Part shown: piece by piece, positions 805-33,341 of the stretch
Layout: the number at the start of each line of letters is the position of its first letter
How positions within the stretch are numbered: position 1 is the first letter of the stretch
IMG/VR virus record: IMGVR_UViG_2518285548_000002
Location: 1 to 64,000 of that record
DNA length: 64,000 nt
Direction: 5' to 3' (one strand)
Origin: a virus
Taxonomy: Duplodnaviria > Heunggongvirae > Uroviricota > Caudoviricetes
Made by a program: the position numbers and the translations under genes
The notes under the pieces: model-generated
Told to the model about the DNA's origin: nothing
Seen by the model: the letters and a program-made list of their open reading frames with translations, nothing else
Databases searched by the model: none

Positions 805-2295
805 CTATACAATCTGGCTTTGGAGTCTCGCGCGAATCTCTCCTAAGCTCTCGTCACGAAGCAACTTACCGTCAAGGAACACTACTTCGAGCTGATCGAG
901 GTGCGCGATCTCGTTATAATCCTCACGGAACATTCCGTCAACATACTTGAAACCACCGTTACCGTCAGACATTACAGCGACCAAACCTCTTTGGGATTTC
1001 TTAATGCCACTGTCTGTCTTAGGGTCTTTGTAGATTAGCTGTTCCTGACCGTTAATAACTACTTGAGTGGCTTTCATAGCATACATGAATGTGTCACGGG
1101 TGTTGTATTGGTAGGTGAAAGAACCGATTCCAAACACTACGTTTGTAGAAGCAAACCCCTTTGCCATTAGAAGCTTACTGATTTCCTCAGCGCGGTCGAG
1201 AGTAATGGAGTCTCCGTAGATAGCTCCAATATGAGGGTCGAGCTGTTTGTACCCCCTAGGTGTTAACGAGCCATTGAAGGTATCCCATAGTACTTCGATC
1301 AATCCCTTGCGAACGATCTCATCCTCCGCATCAGGGTCACCACATAGGATAAGAACAGGGTCTCCTGAGTCAGGGCGAATAACCACTCTACCGTCACGAC
1401 CCATGATCTCTTTTTTAAGGGAAGGGATAACCTCTCCCACAACATGCCAGAAGTCCCACGTATCACAAACGATAGACGCGAATCCTTCGGGATATACCTC
1501 TGTAATCAATCGTTTAATTACAGTCTTTTCATCCTGCCCATTGGCACACATTACAGCGTGTTCGGTAGCAGGAATAGAGGTTCCCACTAATTCCTTCTCG
1601 ATGTCTGCGTTATAGTACTTCTCAAGATAGCCGATAGCGGGGCAGGTGTCCGTACCACTAAAGGATAGAAGATGACCTGCACCGCTTGAAGCCGCCGCTG
1701 AACGACCTGCCATACCACGCATAGAGAAATCATGACCTTGGAATTGTACAGCGTTCAGGTCGCCCCCTGTCAATTTTGCATACTTAGTCAGAATCTCAAG
1801 GTATTGGAAGGCAATCGTAGCACTCGTTGACGGCATCCAAACTTCGCAGGACATAACTGTTTCGATGAAGTTTGTAAGCCAGTAGAACTCTGGTAAAGTG
1901 TTCTCTACTGTAACTACTGGAACTCGTATCTCAGCGCGACTACCTTCTTTCAAGGCTTTGATCTTCAGCGGCAGGTATCCTAGGTCATGGAGAGCGGCTA
2001 TACGTGAACAGTCAGGATTTGTGTGACCTAATGTATGACGAATAAAGCGAACATACTCAGCGATCACAGCTTCCTTCGGGCGGGCGAAGAAGTTGTCATT
2101 GAAGTAGTTAATCAAGAAGTCCTTAATGAATCCCTGTACCCCGAACACCACAACTTTATTGATACCTGGATTGCGGCTACCACGAGGAGTCCATGTGGAG
2201 AACACATACTCTGTTCCTTCAGGGTACTGCTCGGGGTGAGACAGTTTATAGAAGTCACACATGAGTTCAGGCGGGAAGTTATTGGTCGTAGACAT
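805..2295 (-). CDS. nicotinamide phosphoribosyltransferase family protein (NadV / Namat-like)
   Basis: NAMPT-family motifs (DFYK, GTDT, ATEHAVM, IRPDSGDP, YGDSIT). Start taken at internal ATG MSTTNN (2295), which has an AAAGGGG RBS and sits 1 nt after the HAD gene stop. The ORF-track upstream extension to 2535 is unlikely. Confidence 0.85.
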   Translation of the reverse strand: MSTTNNFPPELMCDFYKLSHPEQYPEGTEYVFSTWTPRGSRNPGINKVVVFGVQGFIKDFLINYFNDNFFARPKEAVIAEYVRFIRHTLGHTNPDCSRIAALHDLGYLPLKIKALKEGSRAEIRVPVVTVENTLPEFYWLTNFIETVMSCEVWMPSTSATIAFQYLEILTKYAKLTGGDLNAVQFQGHDFSMRGMAGRSAAASSGAGHLLSFSGTDTCPAIGYLEKYYNADIEKELVGTSIPATEHAVMCANGQDEKTVIKRLITEVYPEGFASIVCDTWDFWHVVGEVIPSLKKEIMGRDGRVVIRPDSGDPVLILCGDPDAEDEIVRKGLIEVLWDTFNGSLTPRGYKQLDPHIGAIYGDSITLDRAEEISKLLMAKGFASTNVVFGIGSFTYQYNTRDTFMYAMKATQVVINGQEQLIYKDPKTDSGIKKSQRGLVAVMSDGNGGFKYVDGMFREDYNEIAHLDQLEVVFLDGKLLRDESLGEIRARLQSQIV

Positions 2296-2296
2296 A

Positions 2297-2740
2297 TTAG
2301 GTAAGCCCCTTTTCGATTTGGGATACTGCTTCAAGCAGTGCGTAATAAGACGAGTGCAAACCTGCTCTGTCGTCAAGCAGGATGTTGTAGTATACCTTGC
2401 GACCACCAAACGGGGTGAAGTCCATGTTCTCATTGATCTTGTCGTAAGGAATAAGATTCTCGTGAAGGTACTCACGGATGTCATCGTACTGACCTTCATG
2501 ACAGCAGGTAAACACGATGAAGTGGGCACCTGCACGTTTGCACCGTTGAAGGAGCGAGATCACGTCATTGTACTTATCCCCTCGCTTATGGAAGTCGAAT
2601 ACGGTGTCATCGAAGTCGTAGGCTATAATTATCTTGCCATGCTCACGCCATTCCTTCAGAAGACGCTGAACTACGTTGTACTGGTCTAGGAAGAAGTCAG
2701 CCACTAGATCATCTCCGTTACTTGGATACTGCTCTCCCAA
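2297..2740 (-). CDS. HAD-superfamily phosphatase
   Basis: DxDxT motif (IIAYDFDDTV) near N-terminus; translationally coupled between the Prs-like and NAMPT-like genes. Confidence 0.7.
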   Translation of the reverse strand: MGEQYPSNGDDLVADFFLDQYNVVQRLLKEWREHGKIIIAYDFDDTVFDFHKRGDKYNDVISLLQRCKRAGAHFIVFTCCHEGQYDDIREYLHENLIPYDKINENMDFTPFGGRKVYYNILLDDRAGLHSSYYALLEAVSQIEKGLT

Positions 2741-3534
2741 ACCTCAGGGATTTCGATTAGCAGTGTGTTGGTGGTGTACACCTTGTCGATCAGATCGGAT
2801 GTGAACACACTGCCCTTGAAAATGGAGTCCTCAGCGTGGGTAACTAGGAGGTATACCTTATCCGCGCCGACATCACGGAGAGCGTTAGAACTACGGATGA
2901 AGGTGTTACCGTAGGAGCAAAGGTCATCAACAATAATAGCCTTGAATCCTTTACCTTCGACAGAGCCAACCAATTGGAGTTTGTCAATCTGCCCTGTCTT
3001 GAAGTCACGCTCTTTAAACCCTACCAGTTGCTTAAACTTGGTGAAGTGCTTGCCATACCGCTTCTGAGCACCCTGATCGGGGAAGAATAGGTAATCCTTT
3101 TCAATGTCGAAGTTCAGGTCTGCCATGACTTCGTGTAGCAACCTGGTTGTAGGGTAGAGTGCTACACTACGATCAAGGAGAGCCATAGTCACGTCCGAGT
3201 GCGGCTCGATCACCGTGACATACTCAAAATTCATGCCGTTAATCATATTGGCTACATACTTTAAGGTAAACACAGAGTTCCCTTCTACCCTATCCATCCT
3301 GCTGTAAGGCATGTACGCGATAGTTAGGTTGGTTGTGAAATAATAGCTATCCAAGAATGATTTAACGAACAGGAGCTTCAGAAGATCGCTATCGTTCTCA
3401 TACTTGAGAGTTACTTCAACTTCTACCTCTCTTGATTTGAATTTAAGAAGTTCGATAATTTGTTCCCCGTCAACCAAAGTCTCCCCGTTAGGGAAGACTT
3501 TGAAGTTGAGGGGGGTACCGTTCAATTTAATCAT
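2704..3534 (-). CDS. ribose-phosphate pyrophosphokinase family protein (Prs / Adps-like)
   Basis: PRPP-synthetase-like fold motifs incl. IIVDDLCSYGNTF (cf. Prs DD..DTGGT PRPP-binding loop); 276 aa, shorter than canonical Prs. Confidence 0.8.
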   Translation of the reverse strand: MIKLNGTPLNFKVFPNGETLVDGEQIIELLKFKSREVEVEVTLKYENDSDLLKLLFVKSFLDSYYFTTNLTIAYMPYSRMDRVEGNSVFTLKYVANMINGMNFEYVTVIEPHSDVTMALLDRSVALYPTTRLLHEVMADLNFDIEKDYLFFPDQGAQKRYGKHFTKFKQLVGFKERDFKTGQIDKLQLVGSVEGKGFKAIIVDDLCSYGNTFIRSSNALRDVGADKVYLLVTHAEDSIFKGSVFTSDLIDKVYTTNTLLIEIPEVWESSIQVTEMI

Positions 3535-3557
3535 AAAATGGCTCCCCCTTTATTTGC

Positions 3558-4069: not shown

Positions 4070-4503
4070 CAGAACTTATCCCTAACACATTTGTCGAGGA
4101 AGGTTTCGCTCATAACGTTGTAGAACGGTGTACCGTTTCCTTTGATAACCTCAACGAAGTAGGTGAAGCTGTTATTCACCCCACACAACTGAGGTGATAT
4201 GCTGACAACCTTCATGGTACGGCTAGACATAGGGTGATCGAACTGGTCTCCTACATGGTACTTAGGACGAGGTACCTTAGCTAGATCATTTAGATCGACC
4301 AGTTGATGCAACTCACTTAACGGATGCATCGAAGGTCGATCATGGTCGCTAATTTTTAGCACAACGTAGTCCTGACCTTCAATCTTCATAAACGATACAA
4401 TCTCGTACTGGACAAACGTAGTAGAGCTACGGTAAACGTCTTCAGCTTGGTACTCAGTACCTTTGTAATAAACACTCATGGTTGTTTTAGCCATGGTTAG
4501 TTT
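4069..4503 (-). CDS. hypothetical protein (start trimmed to internal Met)
   Basis: ORF-track version overlaps upstream gene by 200 nt; internal MKLTMAK start removes overlap. Confidence 0.45.
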   Translation of the reverse strand, partial: KLTMAKTTMSVYYKGTEYQAEDVYRSSTTFVQYEIVSFMKIEGQDYVVLKISDHDRPSMHPLSELHQLVDLNDLAKVPRPKYHVGDQFDHPMSSRTMKVVSISPQLCGVNNSFTYFVEVIKGNGTPFYNVMSETFLDKCVRDKF

Positions 4504-4912
4504 CATCTCCTTGCTCAATAGGTAGTGGATATGTGCAGTCTTGACAAAGCGCTGTGAACTCGCCAGTTGTATTACAATGACACCGTTCGCAGAATGTGAC
4601 TGGTAGTAGGTTCCCAAAGTGGTGTAATTCTCCGTGAGTGTCCCAAATATTAGGATAGGGCTTGGTCTGTATCTCGATAACCTCACCCGTCAGCTTGTTA
4701 AGGCAGGGACGGTTAATTGAGAACCAGGAGTAGTAGTCCTTGGTTGAAAGGACACTATGGGAATCGAATCGGTACAGGATGTCGGTGCCCTTGAAGCGTA
4801 ACAACAAGGGCATTAGCTCATCCTCGGTGATCTCCATAACCTCTCCCCACCTTCCTGCAAATCTTAGGGAGTGGGCGGGGAGGACAAACACAAGGTCACC
4901 GACATTAATCAT
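4487..4912 (-). CDS. hypothetical protein, Cys-rich C-terminus
   Basis: CERCHC..C..C cluster suggests Zn binding. Confidence 0.5.
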   Translation of the reverse strand: MINVGDLVFVLPAHSLRFAGRWGEVMEITEDELMPLLLRFKGTDILYRFDSHSVLSTKDYYSWFSINRPCLNKLTGEVIEIQTKPYPNIWDTHGELHHFGNLLPVTFCERCHCNTTGEFTALCQDCTYPLPIEQGDETNHG

Positions 4913-5379
4913 CCTTTGACCGCCGATACAATCAGACGAGGAGCATCATACTTCTCAATCCAAGCATGAGCCTTCAGTGCTTCAAGGTCGATTTCACCAC
5001 GCTCGATATACTCAGAAAGCACCCCTTCATTGACAACCTTACGAACCTCTATAATGGATTCCACCACTTTGTATGGGAGGTTGGCTTCAAGAAACTCTTT
5101 GACCTTCTCCATATCGAAGTTGGATTTATCAGGCGTAGAGTAGGAAGCTCGGAATCCACCCCAGTCAGCCTTACGCTTTCCTAGCTCTTGCAGACCCTTT
5201 AGGATTAGACCCTTGTTTACCTTGAGCCACTTCTCGTCCTGCTTCTTGCGCTCGTTACGGAAATGATACTCTTGTAGGGTTTCTTCACCTACCGAAGATT
5301 GCTGAGCGAATACATCCTTTTCTGCTTCAACCTCAGAGGAGGTTTCTTTACCTAAAACATGATTTGCTAGTGAGTTCAT
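4909..5379 (-). CDS. hypothetical protein
   Basis: ORF with RBS AAGGGAGATGAG; first gene downstream of promoter-like motif P1. Confidence 0.55.
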   Translation of the reverse strand: MNSLANHVLGKETSSEVEAEKDVFAQQSSVGEETLQEYHFRNERKKQDEKWLKVNKGLILKGLQELGKRKADWGGFRASYSTPDKSNFDMEKVKEFLEANLPYKVVESIIEVRKVVNEGVLSEYIERGEIDLEALKAHAWIEKYDAPRLIVSAVKG

Positions 5380-6582: not shown

Positions 6583-6751
6583 TTACAATTGTATCTGAAG
6601 CTCTAATCCAACGGGCGACATAACCAACCACGGAATATCTCATGGTACCCAAAATGGACTCAGCTTCCCCTTTAACGAGTAAGCCTTGACCAATCTTATT
6701 TCGGTACCGTGCTCCTTTACTGGTCGCACCCGTTATGAGCACGGTTTTCAT
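6572..6751 (-). CDS. small ORF (59 aa) MKTVLITGATSKGARY..., ATGA-coupled to helicase stop
   Basis: Not in ORF track (<60 aa); ATG overlaps TGA of SNF2 gene; N-terminus resembles a Rossmann TGxxxG motif. Confidence 0.35.
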   Translation of the reverse strand: MKTVLITGATSKGARYRNKIGQGLLVKGEAESILGTMRYSVVGYVARWIRASDTIVIGG

Positions 6752-8607
6752 GTAATCATCCTTTCATCAATACCTGCAAGTGACGCTATGATCTGCTTCG
6801 CCACGCCAAGATCGAGGTTGTTGATTCCCTCATCAAGCATGGTTTGAGCCATGGCTTCTTTGCGCTGTAATGTCTCCTGAACATGCTCGTCAATCGTTCC
6901 CTCACACACAAGATAGTAGACCGTCACGGCGTTCTGCTGACCAATACGGTGGGCGCGGGAGAAGGCTTGCTCTACATAAGCAGGTGACCATTCACAGTCA
7001 AGGAAGATAACGTGAGTAGCCTTGGTAAGAGTTAGCCCCTCACGACAAGCAGGTGTACACCCGATGAAAATTTTGCAGTCATTGTCATTCTGGAATCGGT
7101 ATACTTCCTTCTGCCGATCAGATGTCATGGTCTCATCGAGTAGCTTCCTTTTCTGCTCCTCAGGCATGTCGTACCATTCCTGTCTGTACTTTTTCTTCAG
7201 GATACGTACAGCGGAGTTCTCTGTTTTACCGTTGGCATCCACGTCACCATGTATAACCGCAGGTTGGTATTTAGAATACCGTTTTTCAATAAGTTCAACC
7301 ATTGTGCGAAAACGGGAGAATATGATAACTTTTTCCTCGCCACTATCAACCAATTCCTCGATCATCTCATCAAGGGCAAGAAGCTTAGAGCTTGTGTTCT
7401 TACCTGGGGAAACCCCGATTAACTCAATAGAGTCTGTTACTTGCTGAAGTCGTAGTAGCTTGGTTAGTGCTGATGGAATCCTATCTAATGACGTATCCTT
7501 CAATTCCTCCGTGATCTCTTCCTTGACAGCCTGATACAACTTGGACTGAGTAGGGGTCATGCTAAGGTTGATCTTCTTAAATGCTACCTCAGGAAGCTCC
7601 TTGAGCTTGTCCTTCTTACGTCTTCGGAGCATGTTGATCTGAATAAGGTTCTTCAGCTCCATAATATTCTGATAACCCACAATTTCCTTACCATTGAAGC
7701 CACCCATGATAGCGTAGCGGGCTTGGAACTGCCACCAGTTGTAATCCGTTCGTTTACCGAATCTAAGGTAGTTGAAGGACTCAATAGGGCTGTTGGGGAG
7801 TGGTGTGGCGGTCAGAACATAGCGACTGCGAAAGTTAATTCTATGAATCAGGGAACCAATCTTACTATTAGGGTTCTTAATCTTGTGAGCTTCGTCCATG
7901 ACGCAGAATTGAAGTTCCCTATAGTTGTCTAATAGCTCAAGATTATGGATATCACATCTAAAAGTCTCGTAGGACATAATGATGACATCCCAATCTTCAT
8001 CATTGGTTAGTTGGTTGTACAGCTTGGCACGTTGATTAACCGTTCCCGCCATGACAACTGACTTGAGATTAGTGTGCATGTGTATCTCGTCACGCCAGTT
8101 AAATAGCAGACTAGCCTTCGCTAGGACAATTCCGCGCTTTAAATGACCAAGCTTCTTCTTAGCTTCGATGGCATTAGCTACCTGCCAAGACTTCCCGAGT
8201 CCCGCATCATCGGCTAAGATCAGGAAATCCTTGCTAACCATGAGGTTGAACCCTTTGACTTGAAATTCACCCCAAGGGCGTGTCTTGAACCCCCTATGGT
8301 CAATAATCTCTCCATGCTCGTTATAAGTGACTCCGTACCCAGGAACAGTAGGCTCAGAAGGGATGTCGTCTTCACTTATACCGCCGTTGCTTCTTTTTTC
8401 CTCGTCAGTCCAGTTGATTAGGAAGCCACCCATCTTACTTTCAAAATCCTCACGAAATGCGAGAGGGATAGCCCAAACCTTTTGAGCAGGACTGTAGATA
8501 GCCCCTTTAACTTGACTCATTGCATCAACTAGGGTTTTGACGGAGCGAAAAGAAGCCTTAATCCACCATTTACCATCATTGCCTTTAATCTTTTCAGCTC
8601 TTATCAT
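6748..8607 (-). CDS. SNF2-family helicase
   Basis: Walker A DDAGLGKS, DEAH box (VMDEAHKIKN), C-terminal helicase motifs; RBS AGGAGGTG. Confidence 0.85.
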   Translation of the reverse strand: MIRAEKIKGNDGKWWIKASFRSVKTLVDAMSQVKGAIYSPAQKVWAIPLAFREDFESKMGGFLINWTDEEKRSNGGISEDDIPSEPTVPGYGVTYNEHGEIIDHRGFKTRPWGEFQVKGFNLMVSKDFLILADDAGLGKSWQVANAIEAKKKLGHLKRGIVLAKASLLFNWRDEIHMHTNLKSVVMAGTVNQRAKLYNQLTNDEDWDVIIMSYETFRCDIHNLELLDNYRELQFCVMDEAHKIKNPNSKIGSLIHRINFRSRYVLTATPLPNSPIESFNYLRFGKRTDYNWWQFQARYAIMGGFNGKEIVGYQNIMELKNLIQINMLRRRKKDKLKELPEVAFKKINLSMTPTQSKLYQAVKEEITEELKDTSLDRIPSALTKLLRLQQVTDSIELIGVSPGKNTSSKLLALDEMIEELVDSGEEKVIIFSRFRTMVELIEKRYSKYQPAVIHGDVDANGKTENSAVRILKKKYRQEWYDMPEEQKRKLLDETMTSDRQKEVYRFQNDNDCKIFIGCTPACREGLTLTKATHVIFLDCEWSPAYVEQAFSRAHRIGQQNAVTVYYLVCEGTIDEHVQETLQRKEAMAQTMLDEGINNLDLGVAKQIIASLAGIDERMIT

Positions 8608-21908: not shown

Positions 21909-22187
21909 CTATCTGTTTTGAGGTTCACCTTTGTCAAATACCTTGCTTACTACTCCTAGTGCGAACCCTAAGGCGGCGGCTACAAGCCAACCCTGCTTAC
22001 CGTTTTCTTCATCTATTAGATACTCCAAAGCTCCTAAGTAAGCAAGAGCCACACCGATCAGAATGCAAGATATGAAGCTAGTTGCAGGATACGAGTGGGT
22101 GAATGCCGCTATTAAAATGAATATAATGATTCCAATTGCGATTGTCATGTTACACCTACTTACTCGAATATTTAGATAGCTCGCCAT
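21909..22187 (-). CDS. small membrane protein (2-3 TM)
   Basis: Hydrophobic segments; overlaps end of SLH protein gene. Confidence 0.5.
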   Translation of the reverse strand: MASYLNIRVSRCNMTIAIGIIIFILIAAFTHSYPATSFISCILIGVALAYLGALEYLIDEENGKQGWLVAAALGFALGVVSKVFDKGEPQNR

Positions 22188-22953
22188 TATCCTTTAGGTG
22201 GTTGTACAGGCGATGTAATATGGTCACGGCTTCAGCCCTGGTGACCTGATCGGCGGCTTCAAATTCTCCATTATATGTTGTCATGATACCGTGCTGTTGA
22301 AGGGATGCCACTTTCGGGGCAACAACTTCCGTGTAATCGTCAAAGATTTTCATAGTACCATTGTCTAAGTAGTCAATTACGAAAGGGAATACAGTGTTGG
22401 TCATATCGACTCCATACATGTATCTGTTGTCATCGTAGTTATCGGAGACTACGATCTTGAAGTCTTGCATCTTGGAGACTCTCTTATACGCTTCGTCTAA
22501 AGAAATTGGACTGTAAACTTCAGGCAGAAGGTTCACGACCCCCATTCTTGTAAGTTCTTTATCAGGATCGAACACCTTACCTTCCTTTGTATAGTAAGAG
22601 AAGTTCCCAGTATCCATCATTGGTGCCATGTCGTAGATCGCAGTGTACGCCCAGTAATTCTTCGGGACATCAATGAATTTGTCCACAACTAGCTCCTGTG
22701 ATCTGTACTTGTCAAATAGCTTGTGAGTCATCGAGATAAACTCGGCTTTGGTGACTTTCTCATCAGGCTTGAATGTCCCGTCCGAGTATCCCGTGACTAC
22801 TCCTTTCTCGGTCATGAAGCTGATGGAACTGATCGCCCACGAGTGTTGGGTCTCACTCACATCTTTGAAATTGGAGGTCTGTGCGCTTGCGGCAGTGGAG
22901 CCGATAAGCAGTGATGAAGCTAGTGTTATCGCTAGTACAATCCTCTTCTTCAT
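22156..22953 (-). CDS. secreted SLH-domain protein
   Basis: Signal peptide MKKRIVLAITLASSLLIGSTAASA; SLH motifs (..GYSDGTFKPDEKVTKAEF.., ..ADQVTRAEAVTIL..). Confidence 0.7.
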   Translation of the reverse strand: MKKRIVLAITLASSLLIGSTAASAQTSNFKDVSETQHSWAISSISFMTEKGVVTGYSDGTFKPDEKVTKAEFISMTHKLFDKYRSQELVVDKFIDVPKNYWAYTAIYDMAPMMDTGNFSYYTKEGKVFDPDKELTRMGVVNLLPEVYSPISLDEAYKRVSKMQDFKIVVSDNYDDNRYMYGVDMTNTVFPFVIDYLDNGTMKIFDDYTEVVAPKVASLQQHGIMTTYNGEFEAADQVTRAEAVTILHRLYNHLKDNGELSKYSSK

Positions 22954-23237
22954 AGTTACTACCTGCCTTTCTTATGATGTTTCCCCATATTAGCATAGAA
23001 CGATTTGATTCGTATATACGAGACAATACACGATAATCCACCTATAGGAACCTATAGCATCGTCCACTGCTAGGAGCGTACTACAGACTTCCATCGTCCC
23101 CCTTAAAACACAAATTCCCTTCTCATCAGAATCTAAGATATTTATTACATAATTTAACTACTATTTACAAATATATACATTTAAGGTAATATGTTAAGAA
23201 ATATCACGTTTTATTAATTTTCTGGAAGGGGATTTGT

Positions 23238-24524
23238 ATGGACGAAATTTTAACTTCCACAACATTGGGGGAACTGATAAAGAAGAAAAGAGAGGATTTA
23301 GGTATTAGTTTGTCTGAGGTTTCCAGAAAAACTGGCATTAGCAAGGGAGGGATTTCCAAGATTGAAAATGGTGAAACAAAAGGACCAGAGCTGGCTACTT
23401 TAAAGCCAATTGCCGATGTTTTAGAAATCCCTTATGAGGAAATAATTGAATATTGCATCAGGGCAGAATATCGTTATGATGTCTACGATGATCTCTTGGA
23501 AGAAGCCATAGAAATTGCTAACCCTTCTTTGATTGATAAAGTGGCAATCAAATTCCTAGAAAATATTAAGCATGAAACAGATTCAGCGCTGGAGCATTTG
23601 GAACGATTTGCAGATTCCAGCACAAACAACGATACAAAGGTAACGCTCTATAACACAATTGTGAAGTACTCTAGACAGCATGGGCTACCACATTACATAG
23701 CTAAAGGGTTATATCAAAAATACTTAATTGAGAGACAAAATTTAAAACGTTTGGAAGAATCCTTTAGAGATGGTGAAGAAATCACTCACTATGTTGATTT
23801 TTTATCTGATAATGAAAAGATAACATATTACTTTAAAATGGCTTTACATGCTCATAATACTAAAAAATATAATGAGTGTATCGAGTATTGTGAAGCAGGT
23901 CTTAGACTAGATGTTTCAAGCAACGAGTTGAAGGCTAGAGCTTATTTATCTATGATAAATTCCTATGGTTTCCTGAAAAATTACGATATGGCAGAGTACC
24001 ATCTGGACTTTTTAGAAAAATACGGATTTGAGTTCGTTTCCGATTCATGTAAAATTACTAGAGCTATTATACAAGGGAAAAGGAAACATTTCAGTATAGC
24101 TATTCCAGCACTAAGAAAATGCTATGAAGTGGTACAAAGTGACTTGAAGATACATGTAATCAATGAATTATTAGATTTGTATCTTCAGGAGAGTGATTCT
24201 ACTTCGATTGAAGAAATTTTTAACCTTGAGCCAGAATTTCTACCTCAAAATCCAACAACTCCTTATAAAAAAATAGCTATCGGTAAATACTTCCAGTATA
24301 AAGGGAATTATTTGACCAAAAATTGCATATTTAATGAAGGAGCAAGATCATATTTACTAAGCTTAAAGACATTTGGAGCTGTTTATGCAATTCAAGAACT
24401 TGCAGAATGCATGACCGAATTTTTAGCTTTGTTTACAGCAAATTCTAAATCAATGGATTTGGAATATGTTGTAAGACTAAAAGAGGTGTATACTGATATT
24501 GCAAACAAAAAGGAGGGGTTATAA
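23238..24524 (+). CDS. RNPP-family regulator (N-terminal XRE HTH + TPR-like helical repeats; AimR/NprR/PlcR-like)
   Basis: HTH LGISLSEVSRKTGISKGGISKIENGET; long helical C-terminal region; coupled downstream peptide gene. Confidence 0.7.
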   Translation: MDEILTSTTLGELIKKKREDLGISLSEVSRKTGISKGGISKIENGETKGPELATLKPIADVLEIPYEEIIEYCIRAEYRYDVYDDLLEEAIEIANPSLIDKVAIKFLENIKHETDSALEHLERFADSSTNNDTKVTLYNTIVKYSRQHGLPHYIAKGLYQKYLIERQNLKRLEESFRDGEEITHYVDFLSDNEKITYYFKMALHAHNTKKYNECIEYCEAGLRLDVSSNELKARAYLSMINSYGFLKNYDMAEYHLDFLEKYGFEFVSDSCKITRAIIQGKRKHFSIAIPALRKCYEVVQSDLKIHVINELLDLYLQESDSTSIEEIFNLEPEFLPQNPTTPYKKIAIGKYFQYKGNYLTKNCIFNEGARSYLLSLKTFGAVYAIQELAECMTEFLALFTANSKSMDLEYVVRLKEVYTDIANKKEGL

Positions 24525-24525
24525 T

Positions 24526-24669
24526 TGAGAAAAGCATATGGAATGTTGATGTTGTCGTTAGCCTTAGTGATGACTCTAGGCATTACAGCAAATACTGAAA
24601 CTGCAAGTGCTAAAGAATTAAATTCTCCGCAAAAAGCTCAATCTTATTTTGTTGATCCTGGTCATTAAT
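24526..24669 (+). CDS. secreted signalling pro-peptide candidate (47 aa, TTG start)
   Basis: AAGGAGGGG RBS; signal-peptide-like MLMLSLALVMTLGITA; starts 2 nt after regulator stop. Confidence 0.5.
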
Positions 24670-24696
24670 TCAATTGTTTTATCCTCAAATAAAAAA

Positions 24697-24730
24697 GAGA
24701 GCGCTAAATAAATAGCGTTCTTTTTTTTTG
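24697..24730 (+). terminator. rho-independent terminator
   Basis: AGCGCTA-loop-TAGCGTT followed by T9. Confidence 0.55.
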
Positions 24731-24972
24731 TGAAAATTTTATTGCTCATCATAAATATAGTTAGAACGTTTCCTCGAAAAAAAAATAGGGGGATTCCCCT
24801 AAACGGATGGTAAAATAATCAATAACAGGAAAAAGGAGGGATTTAGTTAATTGGTATCAGTTAAACAACGGGGTGTCCCAACGGTCGCTAAACTAATTGG
24901 AACACCCCGCTTTGATCAACTAAAAACGTTGTTCAGAAAAATTATATCATCGAATTAAAGGAGGAAAAAGCA

Positions 24973-25158
24973 TTATTTCACTGTCTGAAAATGATTTATT
25001 AAAGTCTTTTGAAGACCTCCAGCAAAAATTAGTAGAACTATATCGTACAGAAGGTTCATTTTTAAGTCCAACAGTGTTGCAAATAAGTCAACAACTAGAC
25101 GAATATATTGTCGCAATTCAGAAGATGGCAAAAAATCTAAATGAATGTCGAGACTAGA
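24973..25158 (+). CDS. Spo0E-like small protein, apparent AUU start
   Basis: SQQLDEYI matches Spo0E family signature; no ATG/GTG/TTG in frame after upstream TGA; GGGAGG RBS 7 nt before ATT. Confidence 0.4.
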
Positions 25159-25249
25159 ATAGACTGTACGGAAGCCCTTGCGATATATGAATAGCCGTTT
25201 TTAGCTATTCGAAGTCCGACAGACCTTTAAATTAGGAGGAAATGCACGA

Positions 25250-25810
25250 ATGAGAAAAAAACTAAAGATTGCAATTGTTACTACTTTATCATGTGTATCT
25301 CTTTTTTCTGCTGTAGCATATGCTGATTACGGCAAGAAATATCTGTTTACGGGAGGGTTACGGGCTTCAGATGTTAAGAAAATCAAGTATGTAATAGCTG
25401 GCGGAAGTTCTTCCTATCAAAGAAATGTAATGAAAGCTGGAGTTGAGGCTTGGAACGGAATTTCATCAAAGGTTAAGCTAACTGAGGGTAACTCTGGTGC
25501 AAAAGTGAGTGTGATACTCACAAATGCTGATAATGATGATTTATATGGGATTATGATGCCATTTAGCAATGGAGCTAGAGATTATGATCTAGATGAAATT
25601 TGGGACAACATAGATGTTATTGGATATGACAATACTCTATCGAGAATTGGGCTTAGCGAACAAAGGGGCGTATTTACTCACGAGATGGGACATGCATTGA
25701 GTTTAGCACATAATAACTCAGACTCAGATTTGATTATGCACCCATATGCATTAAGTACAGATATTCAGACAGATGATGAGAAAAATCTGAAGTTGAAGTG
25801 GGGGAAATAG
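25250..25810 (+). CDS. secreted zinc metalloprotease (HExxHxxxxxH, matrixin/snapalysin-like)
   Basis: Signal peptide; THEMGHALSLAHNN. Confidence 0.7.
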   Translation: MRKKLKIAIVTTLSCVSLFSAVAYADYGKKYLFTGGLRASDVKKIKYVIAGGSSSYQRNVMKAGVEAWNGISSKVKLTEGNSGAKVSVILTNADNDDLYGIMMPFSNGARDYDLDEIWDNIDVIGYDNTLSRIGLSEQRGVFTHEMGHALSLAHNNSDSDLIMHPYALSTDIQTDDEKNLKLKWGK

Positions 25811-25813
25811 TTA

Positions 25814-26401
25814 ATGAGCATGAAAAAACTGGCAGGAACAATTGTTTGTTCGGTTGCATTGGTTGCTGGTGGCTTTTACTTTTTGACGCCATCTAAAATT
25901 ATGAAGGTCGAGGCTAAAGTAGTAGGTTACAAAAATGTCGAAGCGTTAGAAAGGGGAGCAGATTATATTGTAGTAGGACATCTTGAAAGGGACTTCTCAG
26001 AATATGAGCCAACCTTTAAATATACTTCAGAGGGAAGAGTTGGAGAATTCTATACAAAAACTGATATCATCATTGATAAAACCCTCAAAGGAGACGCTGA
26101 TACAAAGGTTATTCCTGTCCTTCAAGCCGCCGCCTATGTAGAAAGCTCTTTTAAATATCAAGCCGATTTAGAAACAATAGAGGGTTTTACACCTATGGAA
26201 AAAGGAAAAGAGTACCTTCTGTTCTTAAAAAAGGCTCATGACGGTGAAAACTATAGTTTGTTAGGTGTATACCAAGGCAAATTTGATATTGATGAGTCTG
26301 ATAAGGTACAAGGGTTAGCATCAGAGAATAGCCACTATCAAAATTTGAGAGATGAAGTAGTGGAAAAATATAAAGATATTTTCGAAAAGTCAGTTCCATA
26401 A
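25814..26401 (+). CDS. secreted/membrane-anchored hypothetical protein
   Basis: N-terminal hydrophobic anchor. Confidence 0.6.
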   Translation: MSMKKLAGTIVCSVALVAGGFYFLTPSKIMKVEAKVVGYKNVEALERGADYIVVGHLERDFSEYEPTFKYTSEGRVGEFYTKTDIIIDKTLKGDADTKVIPVLQAAAYVESSFKYQADLETIEGFTPMEKGKEYLLFLKKAHDGENYSLLGVYQGKFDIDESDKVQGLASENSHYQNLRDEVVEKYKDIFEKSVP

Positions 26402-26425
26402 AGTTGAGACTTAGGGGGAAGTAAT

Positions 26426-26626
26426 ATGCAAGCTTGGGCTGATTCCGACCCTATTGATTGTACACAGCTTCAAAGGGACAAGAAAAAGGTTCAGAGAGCA
26501 ATTGACTTTGAAAAGTCACTGGAAGGTAAGCGTCTTACAGGAGAAAGTCCCCAAAACAAAAATCAAACAGGAGTGCTTTTGTATGACAGCGCTAAAGAAA
26601 CTTGCAACCAGTCCAATACGGGCTGA
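26426..26626 (+). CDS. possible small ORF (66 aa) with strong RBS, overlaps start of next regulator
   Basis: GGGGGAAG RBS before ATG. Confidence 0.3.
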   Translation: MQAWADSDPIDCTQLQRDKKKVQRAIDFEKSLEGKRLTGESPQNKNQTGVLLYDSAKETCNQSNTG

Positions 26627-28016
26627 GATCGAACACCATCTCAAATCATATAACTACACGCTTAGTAAGCTCAGTGAATTGACCAATATCAATACTGGTC
26701 ATCTAAGTGGGTATTTGAAGGGACATAAGTATAGGAAACTAACACTTGACCAATTGAATGCAATTGGACAAGTGTTTGAAAAACCTGATGGGTGGTTATA
26801 CGATTTATACGTTGAGGAATACTTCTATAGAGTAAAAATTACTCTCAGACGAGCGAAATCATTTCTGGTGCAATGTGCAGAATTAGGGAGATATGATTGT
26901 ATTCAGTTGGTAATTCCTCTACTCTTGGAACACCCTGATAAAATTAAAATTTTTTTTGGTGTAGCAGAACAGTTGTTTTACAAAGGGAGACAGAAGGAGT
27001 CCATCTTTTTTTACCAATTAGTGGTCGATAACGAAAAAAATATGTTCAAAGAACCAATCATCATGAGTCACTACCGGCTATTTCAACTCTCAGAGAGCAC
27101 AAACACCGAGGCACTATGGAAGGCTGTTCTTATTTTTGAGCCTGTTCGGAGGGAACTGTCTATATATTGCCAATTGGATGCGCTTTTACGACTAGGAAAT
27201 CATTGTTGTACATTGCGTAGATGGAAAGAGGTAGAGAAATTTGCGGACGAACTTTTAGAACTTACTAATTTGGTTTACAAAGATGAGCTGTCTAAGAAAA
27301 AGAGGGGAAATGGTGACGGAATAGAACTGCTTAATCTTGAGAGTCATTTGGTCGCTTACTATGGTCAGGGCTATCTTTTAAAAGCAGTATCTTTAGAGAA
27401 ACAAGGGCTGTATGAAGAAGCCAAGGAATTTGTTTCTGGTTATGCTGATCTGAGCTGGTTTGAACTACTTGACGAGTCTGGACAGGCAGAGGTAGCTAAA
27501 TATAAGAAATTAGCGTTGCTTAACATGTGTAGGCTAGATCTCCTCATGGGAGATACAAGTATACTTCCTGACTTTGTGGAATTCCTTGAATATAACCCAA
27601 CAGAATTATTGTTTGGTTTTATAACAATCGTGGAATCAGCCAACAAGTATGGATTTTCAATAGACATCATACTAGACAAGTTCTCGAAGGAGATTAACTA
27701 TTTTGATAATTACCATGATTCAGCCAATGTAGATCGACATCTACAATTTAGGTATCAGTTAGCTGTTTACCATTTAAAAAATAAGCGCCCTAACAGTGGT
27801 ATCAAAGAAATATTAAGATGCATGACTTTATCTACTGTATTGAATGGCAGTAAAGATTTCATACGATGCGTAGCACTATTTGAAGCGCATAGATACCAAG
27901 CATCAGCTCATCAGGAAATAGAATACAAAAAAAAATTGGAGGAGGTGATGCGTGATGAAAGATTAATTGGACGCTCCCAACCCCTCAGTAAGGAACGTCC
28001 AACAGTAAAACATTGA
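26583..28016 (+). CDS. HTH-domain regulator with long helical (TPR-like) C-terminal region
   Basis: Start trimmed to MTALKK (AGGAGTG RBS); HTH LSKLSELTNINTGHLSGYLKG. Confidence 0.6.
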   Translation: MTALKKLATSPIRAEIEHHLKSYNYTLSKLSELTNINTGHLSGYLKGHKYRKLTLDQLNAIGQVFEKPDGWLYDLYVEEYFYRVKITLRRAKSFLVQCAELGRYDCIQLVIPLLLEHPDKIKIFFGVAEQLFYKGRQKESIFFYQLVVDNEKNMFKEPIIMSHYRLFQLSESTNTEALWKAVLIFEPVRRELSIYCQLDALLRLGNHCCTLRRWKEVEKFADELLELTNLVYKDELSKKKRGNGDGIELLNLESHLVAYYGQGYLLKAVSLEKQGLYEEAKEFVSGYADLSWFELLDESGQAEVAKYKKLALLNMCRLDLLMGDTSILPDFVEFLEYNPTELLFGFITIVESANKYGFSIDIILDKFSKEINYFDNYHDSANVDRHLQFRYQLAVYHLKNKRPNSGIKEILRCMTLSTVLNGSKDFIRCVALFEAHRYQASAHQEIEYKKKLEEVMRDERLIGRSQPLSKERPTVKH

Positions 28017-28276
28017 AGTATTGTAACTATCTTAGCACAAAATGATTGCGATTTACAAAAATTCACAAAACTTTTAAAAGAATTAGACACTAGTTGGTCG
28101 ATATGAATAGGCTGTACGGGAAACTTTACAAAGCCCAATAGGGGGAATAATTATAAAGCCGTGTTCCAGCTATTCTTTGAAGACGACTAAAATTCCCCAT
28201 TATAAACGCTGATCTTCACAAGATGATGAAGTAAATATTTGTAATTTTTTAATCAATTTGGTATATTATAGAAGGA

Positions 28277-28930
28277 GTGTTATGTATGAAAAAGGAAATA
28301 TTAACTGGAGTATTATCCGTAACCTTGTTATCAACGGGTATCATTCCAGCAGTAGCTTCAAATAACATTGACTCTAATCTGTCGATCGAACAAAAAAACC
28401 AATATGTTCAAGCGGAGATGGACAAAGAAGGACTCTCCTTGTTAGCAGGTTTAAAAGTTGACATGGGGCAATATGTCACCTTGGGTAAAGATAATTTACT
28501 ACATCTCGATCCTGAAGCTAAGGAACTGATTGGTGAGAAAGCGTATAGTATTTTCGAGCGTGGCGTTAAGACAATCAATGACGCTTTAAACAGCGGAGAA
28601 TATCAAATACAAAATAACAAATTAGTAAAAACAGACCTAGTACATCCTCAATTTGATCACGAAGAATTTTGGTGGGGAATATCACTGCAATACAATAATA
28701 GAGAAACAAAAGAACTTGCCGCTTTGTGTGAAGAATATTCTACTGATTGGTCATTAGCGTCAGCACTTACTGGCTTGGTTCCAGGTGGACAAAGTATAGG
28801 TATTGCTTCAGCAATTATGTCATGGGGAAACGCAAAATTTGCAAGAAAACTTACTAGCAAAAATAAGGGGAAAGGTGTAAACGTCGATATAGCTTGGGTA
28901 CCAGTAGTTATCTCGATCTATGGTAGGTAG
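28277..28930 (+). CDS. secreted hypothetical protein
   Basis: Signal peptide; strong promoter TTGTAA-N17-TATATT and RBS AGAAGGAG. Confidence 0.6.
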   Translation: MLCMKKEILTGVLSVTLLSTGIIPAVASNNIDSNLSIEQKNQYVQAEMDKEGLSLLAGLKVDMGQYVTLGKDNLLHLDPEAKELIGEKAYSIFERGVKTINDALNSGEYQIQNNKLVKTDLVHPQFDHEEFWWGISLQYNNRETKELAALCEEYSTDWSLASALTGLVPGGQSIGIASAIMSWGNAKFARKLTSKNKGKGVNVDIAWVPVVISIYGR

Positions 28931-28970
28931 TAATTACTTATAGAGATAGCTGGAAGGAGAGAGTTATACT

Positions 28971-29123
28971 ATGGTGTCTTTTTTGACAGCTGTCGTCCTG
29001 TTTAGTCTATTAGGTTACCTATATTTCAATTCTGAAGTAAACCCAATGATACTGATCTTATTAGGGATATCAGCTTCCGTAAATGTGTATCGTGGGTTCA
29101 AAGAATTAAAGAAAAAATCGTAG
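28971..29123 (+). CDS. small hydrophobic membrane protein (50 aa)
   Basis: GGAAGGAGAGAG RBS; not in track. Confidence 0.4.
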   Translation: MVSFLTAVVLFSLLGYLYFNSEVNPMILILLGISASVNVYRGFKELKKKS

Positions 29124-29318
29124 TATTTAAAATACGATTTACAGATCGTGTCCCGATAATAACTTTTAAATAGACAAACGTCAGAGTCTCTTGTATTCTG
29201 ACGTTTGTCTTATTATTTAGATTTAAGTTACACTTTTATTTACAAACTAAATTACTTGTTTTGAGTCTCCTGTCTACTTGCAATCTACATCCGTAGATAA
29301 TAGTGGCTGACCGCTCGA

Positions 29319-29936
29319 TTACTTACCAGTTGTTGCTGTCTGAACAGTCACTTTGGACTGACCTGCGGCTACAACAGCATTAGTAGCGATAGATTCAACA
29401 CGGCTGTTAGCAGATTTCAGTTCCTCACGCAATGTTTCGATCATATCTTCCTGAGAACTTACTGTTTCTTCAAGTGTAGCGATGCGGTTTTCAAGAACAC
29501 GCTTGTCGGCTTTGTTCTCGGCATCCTGCAAACGAATCTCGTTGTCGAAATCTTTCTTCGCATCTGTCTTACCTTTATTGAAGCCTTGTGTTTCCGCTTT
29601 AGCCAACAGGTCAGGAATAGCGTCTACCTTAGCTTTAAGTGTTTCCATACTTTGCTCTGCATGGTCGATTGCGTTTTCACGTTCAACTACTTTAGCTTCA
29701 CGATCAGCTACTTCTTTTACTCGATCTTGTAACTCTGTTTCGAGGCTATCTTCACGAGCACGTTTCTCTTTATTGAACTGGTACAGGTCTTCTTCTTTCT
29801 GGCGAGCCAGTTCTTTTTTCCATGTCGCCGCTTGCTCTGCTTTTTCAACTTCAAACTCCTGGCGAGCTTCTTCAATTACAAGTGCGTATGCGTCTAGTAA
29901 AGCCTTTTTAGTTTCTTGAGTAGTTTTCTTAGCCAT
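29319..29936 (-). CDS. coiled-coil protein
   Basis: ORF, heptad-rich E/K/A sequence. Confidence 0.6.
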   Translation of the reverse strand: MAKKTTQETKKALLDAYALVIEEARQEFEVEKAEQAATWKKELARQKEEDLYQFNKEKRAREDSLETELQDRVKEVADREAKVVERENAIDHAEQSMETLKAKVDAIPDLLAKAETQGFNKGKTDAKKDFDNEIRLQDAENKADKRVLENRIATLEETVSSQEDMIETLREELKSANSRVESIATNAVVAAGQSKVTVQTATTGK

Positions 29937-29974
29937 TTTCTCATTTCCCCCTGTTTTCTCTTGTTAGGTTGCTG

Positions 29975-30120
29975 AAGTGTGGGAGTCAAACCCACTTTGC
30001 AACGGGTATGAGCCGCGCTAGAAACCGTCCTAGCCACCAGCAACAGAGACCGTAGGTGGATTTGAACCACCGATACTTTCACCCATTCTATTCGTGAGCA
30101 GGAATCGAACCTGCGTGGAA
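29975..30120 (-). other. three tRNA 3'-half-like fragments (T-arm + acceptor strand)
   Basis: Minus-strand GTGGG-TTTGACT-CCCAC, GGTGG-TTCAAAT-CCACC, GCAGG-TTCGATT-CCTGC, each followed by 7 nt + discriminator; none folds into a full cloverleaf by eye. Confidence 0.4.
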
Positions 30121-30137
30121 GTGCCCCATAACGGTCA

Positions 30138-30211
30138 TGGCAACGGATACAGGAATCGAACCTGTGCGAACGGCTTCAAAGACCGTTGTTCTACCACTAA
30201 ACTAATCCCCT
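30138..30211 (-). tRNA. tRNA-like gene, anticodon UUG (Gln-like), one G.G mismatch in acceptor stem
   Basis: Manual fold: acceptor AGGGGAT/ATCCGTT, D-arm GTTT-AGTGGTA-GAAC, anticodon stem-loop ACGGT-CTTTGAA-GCCGT, T-arm ACAGG-TTCGATT-CCTGT, encoded CCA. Confidence 0.4.
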
Positions 30212-30306
30212 ACACCCCATATTGGCACACCCTTGTGCGCTGTGAGACTCGCTCACTCGCGTGGTGTGATCTGTTAAAACCTAGATTAGGGATGATTTCG
30301 TAGAAT

Positions 30307-30664: not shown

Positions 30665-31525
30665 TTATTTGCCAGCCGTAGGTAATGCAGGGAGTTGTGT
30701 GATCGTATTACCACCCATTACCTGAGGGTACTTACCATCCCAACGCTTAGCCATTTCGTAGTCGATTAAATGTTGAGTGATAGACTGTTGGAGCTTAGCG
30801 TTCGCCTGAGCTGTACCTTGAGCTTCCGCAATCTTGGCTTCGGCGTTACCTTGAGCTTCCACCAACTGCTTTTCAGCAGTTACTTCAGCTTGAGCCTTTT
30901 CGATCTTCAACTGCTCAAGCTTGAGCTGTGAGTCAACTAAGGACTGAATAGCCTTGAGAGATTCACCGTCAGGCTCAATTTTACTGAAGTTAAAGGTTTC
31001 GATCACGATTCCAACAGAGTCAAGGTCTTTCTTAAATGCTTCCATAACCTTTACGTTAATCTCGCCACGTTTATCACCATATACTTCAAGCACACCGTAA
31101 TTTGAAGTTATTGTCTGGATGGTAGCAGAGAGGCGGTCTTTCATGTAGGTCGCTTCAATGTCATCATCAGAGCGACCACGGAACTTGGCAAATAAATGTG
31201 GTATACGTTTCTCATCCATATGGTAAGAATACATTAACTCGGCTGTTACGACTTTGCCATCCTTCGTTGCTATACGGAATGCACTTTCTCCCTTGTAATG
31301 TACGGTTTCAGTGCTAATTGGGTATTCTGTCACTTTTTGAGTAGGATAAACTGTGTGCCAACCAGGTTTCAAGGTTTCTTCCTCTAATCCACCTGAGCGG
31401 TCGTATACCACACCAACATACCCAGGGGATATTATGGTTAATGTCAACGCCAGATAGATCAGTACACCAATTATGAGAGTACCTACTAAACTACCACCAA
31501 GGACGAACCAGTTACGATTACTCAT
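30665..31525 (-). CDS. SPFH/band-7 (prohibitin/stomatin-like) membrane protein
   Basis: N-terminal TM helix then SPFH-like domain and coiled-coil. Confidence 0.75.
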   Translation of the reverse strand: MSNRNWFVLGGSLVGTLIIGVLIYLALTLTIISPGYVGVVYDRSGGLEEETLKPGWHTVYPTQKVTEYPISTETVHYKGESAFRIATKDGKVVTAELMYSYHMDEKRIPHLFAKFRGRSDDDIEATYMKDRLSATIQTITSNYGVLEVYGDKRGEINVKVMEAFKKDLDSVGIVIETFNFSKIEPDGESLKAIQSLVDSQLKLEQLKIEKAQAEVTAEKQLVEAQGNAEAKIAEAQGTAQANAKLQQSITQHLIDYEMAKRWDGKYPQVMGGNTITQLPALPTAGK

Positions 31526-32803: not shown

Positions 32804-33341
32804 GCACGGAGAGCTGACGGTGTTTTGGGGAACTATGTTCGCGGGTAAATCAACAAATCTGATCACCAACTTAAAAGAAGCGGGTGCAGGTGCGATCTGT
32901 TTCAAGCCTTACTCAGATAATAGGGACGAGCCTAATGTTATTAGAACGCATGACGGTCTTATGTACCCAGTAACGAGGGTAAAAAAGGCAAGCGAAATAC
33001 TTCTACACGTTAATCCAGGTCTGACTACTGTGGGAATTGAGGAAGCATCTTTGTTCTACGAAGACCCGACTCTTATACCAACTATTCAAACACTAAGGGA
33101 GATCGGAGTTAACGTAGTAGTAACTGGATTGGATATGGACAGGCATGGAGTCCCATTCTCCCAAATGCCCTCTATCGCGGCAATTGCTGATAACTGTTTC
33201 AAATTGAGAACTCGGTGCTCGTGTGGGGAGTTTGCTTCACTTAACTACTACAGAGGTGACGGTAGCACATTTGTAGCTCGGGACGACATGTACGAGCCTA
33301 TGTGCAGAACATGTTTCTCAAAGCAGAAGCCATCCCTTTAA
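32796..33341 (+). CDS. tdk: thymidine kinase
   Basis: P-loop GTMFAGKST, VGIEEASLF, C-terminal Cx2C..Cx2C zinc ribbon. Confidence 0.85.
   Translation: MSKHGELTVFWGTMFAGKSTNLITNLKEAGAGAICFKPYSDNRDEPNVIRTHDGLMYPVTRVKKASEILLHVNPGLTTVGIEEASLFYEDPTLIPTIQTLREIGVNVVVTGLDMDRHGVPFSQMPSIAAIADNCFKLRTRCSCGEFASLNYYRGDGSTFVARDDMYEPMCRTCFSKQKPSL

Follow-up and report, generated by a model that had tools for sequence, protein, structure and literature searches.

The operon and its relationship to NARP1

The DNA analysed here (the window) comprises 64,000 nucleotides, positions 1 to 64,000 of the IMG/VR virus record IMGVR_UViG_2518285548_000002 (Caudoviricetes), and encodes an operon resembling NARP1, a phage system for the reconstitution of nicotinamide adenine dinucleotide (NAD+), with a gene for a small protein of the haloacid dehalogenase (HAD) type between the two NARP1-like genes. 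Positions 805-3534 are occupied by three consecutive co-directional genes on the minus strand, and all three open reading frames (ORFs) given in a preliminary description of this DNA were confirmed. The leading gene, adps (2704-3534; ATG at 3534, TAG at 2706-2704), encodes a Prs-like protein of 276 aa; the middle gene (2297-2704; TAA at 2299-2297) encodes a predicted HAD-type capless phosphatase of 135 aa when read from a GTG at 2704; and namat (805-2295; ATG at 2295, TAG at 807-805) encodes an NAMPT-like protein of 496 aa. Between the HAD stop codon and the namat ATG lies exactly 1 nt (T2296), as had been described.

The longest ORF for the HAD protein runs from TTG 2740 to the same TAA (147 aa) and overlaps adps by 37 nt, the overlap originally reported; GAGG stands just 1 nt upstream of this alternative start. 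An in-frame GTG (2704-2702), which shares 1 nt with the adps stop codon (TAGTG), is probably the true start rather than TTG 2740: aligned homologues begin at its position, a 99%-identical database protein of 135 aa begins there as well, and on a near-identical Logan contig genes called independently encode proteins of 276, 135, and 496 aa with boundaries as here. The 37-nt value thus applies to the longest ORF only; from GTG 2704 the overlap would be 1 nt, a coupling of the genes even tighter than the larger overlap implied.

Ribosome-binding and termination signals were read on the same strand. A strong Shine-Dalgarno sequence, AAGGGGGAG (3542-3550), lies 7 nt ahead of the adps ATG, and GGAG (2713-2716) lies 8 nt ahead of the HAD GTG; the Shine-Dalgarno-like AAAGGGG (2306-2312), 10 nt ahead of the namat ATG, falls within the 3' end of the HAD gene. 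A terminator-like hairpin (768-796; 13-bp stem and T-run) begins 9 nt past the namat stop codon. Upstream, a gene of 75 aa stops 23 nt before the adps ATG; because no promoter-like site was found directly upstream of adps, the operon is probably co-transcribed with the small early genes that precede it, and its G+C content (45%) is that of the rest of the early region. Antisense ORFs inside the operon genes, such as those at 2261-2689 and 1247-1615 on the plus strand, were regarded as by-products of the coding strand.

NARP1, which consists of Adps and Namat, was characterized from phages Bas63, SPbetaL1, and FADO, and the Pfam signature that led to it is PF14572 together with PF04095/PF18127 (Osterman et al. 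2024, bioRxiv 10.1101/2024.02.11.579819); deletion of NARP1 from FADO abolishes escape from DSR2. PF14572 is the sole Pfam domain above cut-off in the Adps-like protein, and the Namat-like protein contains PF04095 and PF18127, in keeping with the Prs-family and NAMPT-family assignments made previously. The Adps-like protein matches phrog_619 (244 bits) and falls short of the PRPP synthetase model TIGR01251 (90.6 bits; cut-off 113), the other NCBIfam Prs models being far below their cut-offs. It is 54% identical to SPbetaL1 Adps (256 bits), its best score against solved Prs structures is 57 bits, and the active-site lysine that was mutated in the SPbetaL1 enzyme (K162) is kept as K174. These comparisons of identity, bit scores, and cut-offs support placing the Adps-like protein with SPbetaL1 Adps and not with canonical Prs. 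In vitro, SPbetaL1 Adps converts ADP-ribose (ADPR) and ATP to ADPR pyrophosphate (ADPR-PP), and Prs activity is absent (bioRxiv 10.1101/2024.02.11.579819).

The Namat-like protein is 64% identical to SPbetaL1 Namat. Its best matches in the PDB are 9w5w and 9w5x (731 bits), followed by animal and Xanthomonas NAMPTs at 180-206 bits; the length of 9w5x (491 aa) equals that of SPbetaL1 Namat, so both entries are presumably the structures of Lan et al. Namat has a specific adenine "selectivity clamp" formed by the motif GS-X-Phi-X-Phi-X-Phi-TRD (SCH), in which positions 3 and 7 are aromatic, and by a residue of the beta1-beta2 loop (SCL) that provides stacking (Lan et al., PMC12774641). In the Namat-like protein the SCH motif (GSFTYQYNTRD) is the same as in SPbetaL1, the SCL arginine R41 aligns with R40 of SPbetaL1 Namat, and the catalytic arginine R307 aligns with R306. 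Nineteen of 20 listed NAD+-contact residues are the same; the exception, A362 replaced by serine, is also found in FADO, whose NARP1 locus is 51% and 62% identical to the Adps-like and Namat-like proteins, respectively (tblastn).

The comparison with canonical Prs and NadV that the preliminary description had called for thus places both proteins with Adps and Namat (by cut-offs, PDB scores, and the clamp). From their homology to assayed enzymes, the outer genes very probably constitute a NARP1 core that would rebuild NAD+ by way of ADPR-PP, the match proposed at the outset. As had been stated, no NMNAT is visible: Pfam detected no NMNAT or CTP_transf_like domain in the ORFs scanned (29 that reach 120 aa or more in the interval 1-33 kb, and one of 75 aa), a scan that leaves out shorter ORFs and the structural region from 33 kb of a window that is itself part of a genome. 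The locus and published NARP1 have in common both enzyme families, the Pfam signature, the catalytic residues, the adenine clamp, the leading position of Adps, a phage origin, and the absence of a nearby NMNAT; adps and namat stand on the same strand in immediate vicinity, parted only by the 408-nt HAD gene, and phage structural genes occur in the window. The Adps-Namat pair itself belongs to an already known system. What the window adds is the HAD phosphatase gene translationally coupled between the two, which does lie outside the described two-gene pathway.

A predicted HAD phosphatase in NARP1 loci

The HAD protein has no match in Pfam, and in PHROGs it belongs to phrog_1238, misleadingly named "phosphoheptose isomerase." In alignments of 47 and 66 homologues, HAD motifs I (D30-x-D32-x-T34), II (T66), III (K103), and IV (D111-D112) are invariant or nearly so, as are R14, E18, W19, D37, P86, N91, Y105, N107, and R113. 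An AlphaFold2 model is confident (pLDDT 94.9, pTM 0.89), and its nearest folds are BT0820 (PDB 2obb), class C acid phosphatases, Pnkp 3'-phosphatase domains, and a phage pentose-1,5-bisphosphate phosphatase; 5'(3')-deoxyribonucleotidase-like proteins were likewise listed, and neighbours in a viral fold library are uncharacterised HAD, nucleotidase, and PNKP-like proteins. With 135 residues the protein has no room for a cap domain. The earlier HAD assignment stands on the four motifs and the fold, since single-sequence and profile searches of the PDB gave noise or marginal matches, and the protein is predicted to be a catalytically intact capless phosphatase.

Sequence identity to the fold neighbours is 11-23%. 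Membership in the BT0820 equivalog (NCBIfam NF046079) was rejected, the score of 18.3 bits being below the curated cut-off of 165; BT0820 is nearest in fold only. No characterised close relative was found in PDB sequence and profile searches or in the viral fold library. The HAD protein shares fold, motifs, small size, and lack of a cap with the BT0820 family (2obb), the T4 and Clostridium Pnkp domains, and AfhF of phage HY126 (9iqw). These capless enzymes act on nucleotides, nucleic-acid ends, and phosphorylated pentoses; unlike the protein studied here, none has a known connection with NAD+ metabolism.

Recurrence of the HAD gene beside NARP1 was examined in HAD-seeded samples of 80 IMG/VR loci and 80 bacterial loci from genomes and metagenome-assembled genomes (MAGs), a HAD gene being counted as linked if Adps and Namat were both encoded on the same strand within 6 kb. 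Both are present at 78 of the 160 loci (30 of 80 from IMG/VR, 48 of 80 from genomes and MAGs), which is a very large enrichment because NARP1 occurs in only ~4% of phages. Where the HAD protein from IMG/VR is at least 50% identical to that of the window (23 loci), 20 are linked, 18 as Adps-HAD-Namat and 2 as Adps-Namat-HAD. The 48 linked genome and MAG loci comprise 36 with the order Adps-HAD-Namat, mostly from Bacteroidota (Saprospiraceae, Flavobacterium, and Cytophagales), and 12 with HAD-Adps-Namat from Cohnella and Paenibacillus.

Four gene orders occur in all: Adps-HAD-Namat (here and at 56 other loci), Adps-Namat-HAD, HAD-Adps-Namat, and Namat-HAD-Adps. The Bacillus Wphvirus phages Nemo and W.Ph. 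carry the HAD gene directly after Adps and Namat, and the gut phage Phass-1 has the order nicotinamidase-Adps-Namat-HAD. In crAss-like phage cr126_1 (NC_055884; locus L247, 18476-21174) the order is Namat-HAD-Adps with overlapping frames, and the HAD gene is annotated "phosphoheptose isomerase"; in Lak-A1 the HAD gene adjoins an Adps-like gene. Linkage spans Bacillota, Bacteroidota, and crAss-like phages, with frames usually overlapping or nearly abutting, and in a neighbour-joining tree one large clade consists mostly of NARP1-linked HADs, with others of them in a second clade. The layout is a widespread, conserved architecture and not a peculiarity of this phage.

The closest relative of the operon (L011/L167; IMGVR_UViG_2693429827_000003, 112 kb) encodes Adps and Namat proteins 78% and 82% identical to those of the window, and the HAD protein between them is only 63% identical; the HAD gene either evolves faster than its neighbours or was exchanged. 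Twelve Paenibacillaceae genomes (L088, L090-L092, L094-L100, and L103) have a conserved chromosomal HAD-Adps-Namat cluster; identity to the proteins of the window is 51-62% for Adps and 60-62% for Namat. The Adps/Namat pair of Paenibacillus foliorum is active, and the HAD protein is unmentioned in that study (Lan et al., PMC12774641). In cr126_1, an SPFH/Band-7 gene lies two genes downstream of Namat-HAD-Adps; the window encodes an SPFH protein too.

Gene fusions provide a second kind of association. A profile search of 1.84 billion representatives yielded 655 members of the HAD family at E <= 1e-10, three of which are fused to the NAD synthase NadE; other fusion partners (GIY-YIG, P-loop, and DUF1256) are each one-off, and the N- or C-terminal extensions of some homologues contain no recognisable domain. 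Two of the three HAD::NadE fusions could be placed on contigs, both in nicotinamidase/Adps/Namat-like/HAD::NadE clusters on phage-like contigs. The NadE fusions tie the HAD family to NAD+ reconstitution independently of gene adjacency.

The operons that carry these fusions (L250, 5184-9236, and L251, 91-4076; Logan SRR21291535_2851 and SRR18474588_45420) encode a nicotinamidase (Isochorismatase), Adps, a Namat-like protein, and HAD::NadE, and a related locus occurs in Phass-1 (L006, 1896-5411). Their composition suggests a "deamido" route from nicotinamide to nicotinate, then by way of ADPR-PP to nicotinic acid adenine dinucleotide (NaAD), and on to NAD+. The corresponding motifs of the Namat-like proteins are GSYTYQMNTRD and GSYSVQYSTRD; near the L250 operon lie an Acb2/Tad1-hairpin gene and RtcB as well. 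No description of such a "deamido" NARP1-like operon was found in the searchable literature.

An accessory phosphatase of another family has been reported in NARP1. Defence proteins with a RES domain (aRES) cleave NAD+ to nicotinamide and ADPR-1''-phosphate, the latter a product that NARP1 is unable to use, and 15% of NARP1 operons encode a Macro-domain phosphatase, Adpp, that regenerates ADPR; the assayed operon of this kind (NARP1-AP), from Vibrio phage Gary, has the order Adps-phosphatase-Namat (bioRxiv 10.64898/2026.01.28.702374). The neighbour screen in that study counted Macro Pfams only, and HAD is absent from its text. The window's operon and NARP1-AP are alike in having three genes with the phosphatase in the middle slot and in the expected logic, conversion of a phosphorylated ADPR to ADPR for Adps; they differ in that Adpp is a Poa1p-like Macro domain, whereas the window's protein has a HAD fold with DxDxT nucleophile chemistry, belongs to an unrelated superfamily, and may have a substrate other than ADPR-1''-phosphate. 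The earlier suggestion that the HAD protein could represent a new accessory step is accordingly anticipated as regards an accessory phosphatase, by this preprint of January 2026, and remains good for the HAD version, no HAD-type phosphatase in NARP1 being described in the searchable literature.

A Macro profile built from four published Adpp sequences matched nothing in the window at E <= 1 and nothing in the 160 HAD-seeded loci. As a control set, the 80 IMG/VR loci closest in sequence to the Namat of the window were used. A HAD gene is adjacent at 14 of these and a Macro gene is present at 12 (in agreement with the published 15%); none has both, and ~51 have neither. Two more HAD matches in this set are either weak or at a distance of over 4 kb. 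The two phosphatases were not seen together at any of ~90 HAD-containing NARP1 loci from both samplings. Absence of Macro genes from ~79 such loci would, at a 15% background, have a probability of 0.85^79, or ~3e-6, a figure inflated by the relatedness of the loci. Two IMG/VR records of ~153 kb (L227 and L230) carry a Macro gene (~4440-4955) between Adps and Namat, the slot held here by HAD, in an apparent non-orthologous displacement of the accessory phosphatase; their Namat proteins are 65-66% and their Adps proteins 52% identical to those of the window. Predicted aRES proteins are listed for Paenibacillus, Cohnella, Brevibacillus, Bacillus cereus, and Flavobacterium, the host groups of the HAD-carrying operons.

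Possible functions of the HAD phosphatase

The evidence as a whole tips modestly towards an extended NARP1 operon in which the HAD protein would be a phosphatase that feeds ADPR to the core pathway. In this scheme, defence NADases (Thoeris, DSR, SIR2-HerA, and SEFIR) would release ADPR from NAD+, Adps would pyrophosphorylate ADPR with ATP to give ADPR-PP, and Namat would combine ADPR-PP with nicotinamide to form NAD+ and inorganic pyrophosphate (PPi). Gene context and analogy suggest that the HAD protein may act as a Mg2+-dependent phosphomonoesterase on a phosphorylated ADPR that Adps is unable to use, returning it as ADPR; this step would widen either the range of NAD+-depleting systems overcome or the precursor pool available. 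An action on the ADPR side, and not on the pyridine side, would be expected from retention of the gene in both amide and deamido operons.

The leading candidate substrate would be ADPR-1''-phosphate, the product of RES-domain NAD+ phosphorylases, in which case the HAD protein would be the non-homologous functional counterpart of Adpp. This candidate is placed first because a phosphatase for ADPR-1''-phosphate is the only accessory activity known in this slot, because HAD and Macro phosphatases do not co-occur, because one fold neighbour acts on pentose 1,5-bisphosphate, chemically close to a 5-substituted ribose-1-phosphate, and because of the expected action on the ADPR side. Other candidates would be 2'-phospho-ADPR from the cleavage of NADP+ and the 1''- or 2''-phosphates derived from ADPR-cyclic phosphate, into which the labile ADPR-PP decays spontaneously. 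Recycling of ADPR-cyclic phosphate by the HAD protein is conceivable, since T4 Pnkp has a HAD domain that can open 2',3'-cyclic phosphates and also remove the resulting monoester. It is rather doubtful that the HAD enzyme acts on one of these other substrates instead of Adpp's, as a third branch of NARP1; if true, this would imply either that Bacillota and Bacteroidota possess an undescribed, non-canonical defence that cleaves NAD(P)+ or that the pathway itself includes a further step, for salvage or for proofreading, and the enzyme would serve the "deamido" variant too.

Accessory enzymes are known from a further NARP1 locus, that of mycobacteriophage DyoEdafos, where RyDEP (gp78) yields linear ADPR for Adps and Namat (bioRxiv 10.64898/2026.05.28.727677). 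RyDEP resembles the HAD protein in being the product of an accessory gene in a NARP1 locus; it differs in being a glycosidase acting on cyclic ADPR signals, not a phosphatase, and it has no kinship to HAD in sequence or fold. NARP3, the PnuC/NadR system, is irrelevant to the Adps-HAD-Namat operon.

A number of observations weigh against an ADPR-feeding role. About half of the sampled HAD family has no Adps or Namat within 6 kb. A clade from human gut phages is flanked by two radical-SAM genes with no NARP1 nearby (L069, 6350-7384; L072, 5277-7372; and ~25 similar IMG/VR loci; HAD 41-45% identical, radical-SAM proteins of 243 aa, activase-like, and 344 aa), and stand-alone bacterial copies sit among heterogeneous, unrelated neighbours. 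Among solved structures, the nearest relatives either are uncharacterised themselves or have other substrates. Within the Namat-seeded sample the mutual exclusion of HAD and Macro genes is not significant (Fisher p = 0.11), and it may partly reflect host lineage. Beyond the catalytic motifs, the conserved residues of NARP1-linked and unlinked HADs show essentially no difference, which suggests one common activity, not necessarily specific for ADPR and maybe more general.

Such a general phosphatase of nucleotides or sugar phosphates, perhaps a (d)NMP nucleotidase or a 3'-phosphatase, encoded by an auxiliary metabolic gene that tends to lie near NARP1 among the early genes with no role in NAD+ reconstitution, would agree with the heterogeneous contexts of half the family, with the similarity of its conserved non-catalytic residues across those contexts, and with structural neighbours named 5'-nucleotidase, acid phosphatase, and PNKP phosphatase. 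We consider it unlikely, however: adjacency holds through four gene orders and across phyla with frames mostly overlapping or nearly abutting, linkage at 78 of 160 loci compares with NARP1 in ~4% of phages, NadE fusions lie inside NARP1-type operons, and the Macro phosphatase is reciprocally absent.

A role on the product side is still less probable. The HAD protein would here hydrolyse the PPi released by Namat (and by fused NadE), making NAD+ formation irreversible, or would remove an inhibitory by-product. Release of PPi by both Namat and NadE is established enzymology, three family members are fused to NadE, HAD-superfamily inorganic pyrophosphatases exist (BT2127), and occurrence of HAD in both amide and "deamido" operons points to a function independent of the pyridine moiety. 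Host inorganic pyrophosphatase is abundant, however, and the fold neighbours are monoesterases of nucleotides, nucleic acids, and sugar phosphates, not pyrophosphatases; an open active site with no cap is also an unusual match for so small a substrate. A pyrophosphatase, moreover, need not exclude Adpp, yet no co-occurrence was seen in the ~90 loci.

The alternative raised in the preliminary description, classical salvage in which a true phosphoribosyl pyrophosphate (PRPP) synthetase and a NadV-type Nampt make nicotinamide mononucleotide (NMN) for conversion to NAD+ by host NadR/NadD or by a phage NMNAT encoded outside the window, found no support and is very unlikely, given the Adps and Namat sequence tests and the lack of an NMNAT in the scanned ORFs. 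Family-level models are unable to separate the two readings (PRK09198 matches the Namat-like protein at 537 bits), phage annotations name the homologues Prs and Nampt, SPbetaL1 Namat can convert PRPP to NMN in vitro if no ADPR-PP is supplied, and the window covers only part of the genome; but the Adps-like protein lies under every curated Prs threshold and is 54% identical to an enzyme with no Prs activity, the clamp motif absent from Nampts is fully conserved, and NARP1 and NARP2 were never found in one phage in a published survey. NARP2 and the NadV-NatV pair of KVP40 (Nampt and Nmnat) share with the window a homologous NAMPT-family enzyme and the restoration of NAD+; unlike the window's operon, they need an NMNAT, use PRPP, have a Nampt that lacks the clamp motif, and have no link to Adps.

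Phage context and significance

The window belongs to a large siphovirus-like phage or prophage, with early and replication genes on the minus strand at 1-22 kb and terminase and portal-to-tail genes on the plus strand from 33 kb. The early region includes a SNF2-family helicase (6748-8607, minus strand); a thymidine kinase gene (32796-33341, plus strand) lies directly upstream of the terminase gene, and an unusually long tape-measure-like ORF encodes 2737 aa (45529-53742, plus strand). A megablast search of 50,697 phage records found no match to the 3-kb operon region, so that the phage has no close sequenced relative in that collection, and the terminase is only ~50% identical to those of Brevibacillus phage Jenst and Bacillus phage EZ-2018a. 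The SLH-domain protein described below and the nearest homologues indicate a Paenibacillaceae or Bacillales host, and the operon probably belongs to a Bacillota phage infecting Paenibacillaceae. A near-identical contig (L249; Logan SRR27206944_120) continues beyond window position 1, the left end, and there encodes an endolysin (Amidase_2), a holin, and a serine recombinase of the Resolvase type, a gene content that hints at a temperate or integrative lifestyle.

A low-GC island (~22000-30300; 35-39% compared with ~45% elsewhere) may be a moron or accessory region. It contains genes for an SLH-domain protein (22156-22953, minus strand), a secreted M10/astacin-like metallopeptidase (25250-25810, plus strand), and tRNA-Gln (30138-30211, minus strand), and just past it lies the gene for the SPFH/Band-7 protein (30665-31525, minus strand). 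Also within the island (23238-24668, plus strand) is a gene for a 428-aa HTH_3 and TPR regulator (phrog_32768), followed 1 nt later by an ORF of 47 aa with a signal-peptide-like N-terminus (MRKAYGMLMLSLALVMTLGITANTETASA / KELNSPQKAQSYFVDPGH). The pair looks like an RRNPP-type receptor and its secreted pro-peptide, that is, an arbitrium-like or Rap/Phr-like communication module.

NAD+ depletion is among the commonest antiphage strategies of bacteria, and NARP1 is the main known phage answer, with a weak point in its dependence on plain ADPR. One fix has been published, in which a Macro-domain phosphatase overcomes aRES. The HAD family is a second, unrelated kind of phosphatase that recurs in the operon, at about a sixth of the NARP1 loci sampled around the window's Namat, and its range takes in Bacillota phages, crAss-like and other Bacteroidota phages, and Paenibacillaceae chromosomes. 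Recognition of the family would improve the annotation of genes now labelled "phosphoheptose isomerase," "Prs," and "Nampt," and may be of use in choosing NAD+-restoring modules for engineered therapeutic phages. The finding is a natural sequel to NARP1-AP and RyDEP rather than a surprise: the presence of a HAD phosphatase in this position would reflect either convergent evolution of the same counter-defence or the existence of another NAD+-derived dead-end product that phages must recycle.

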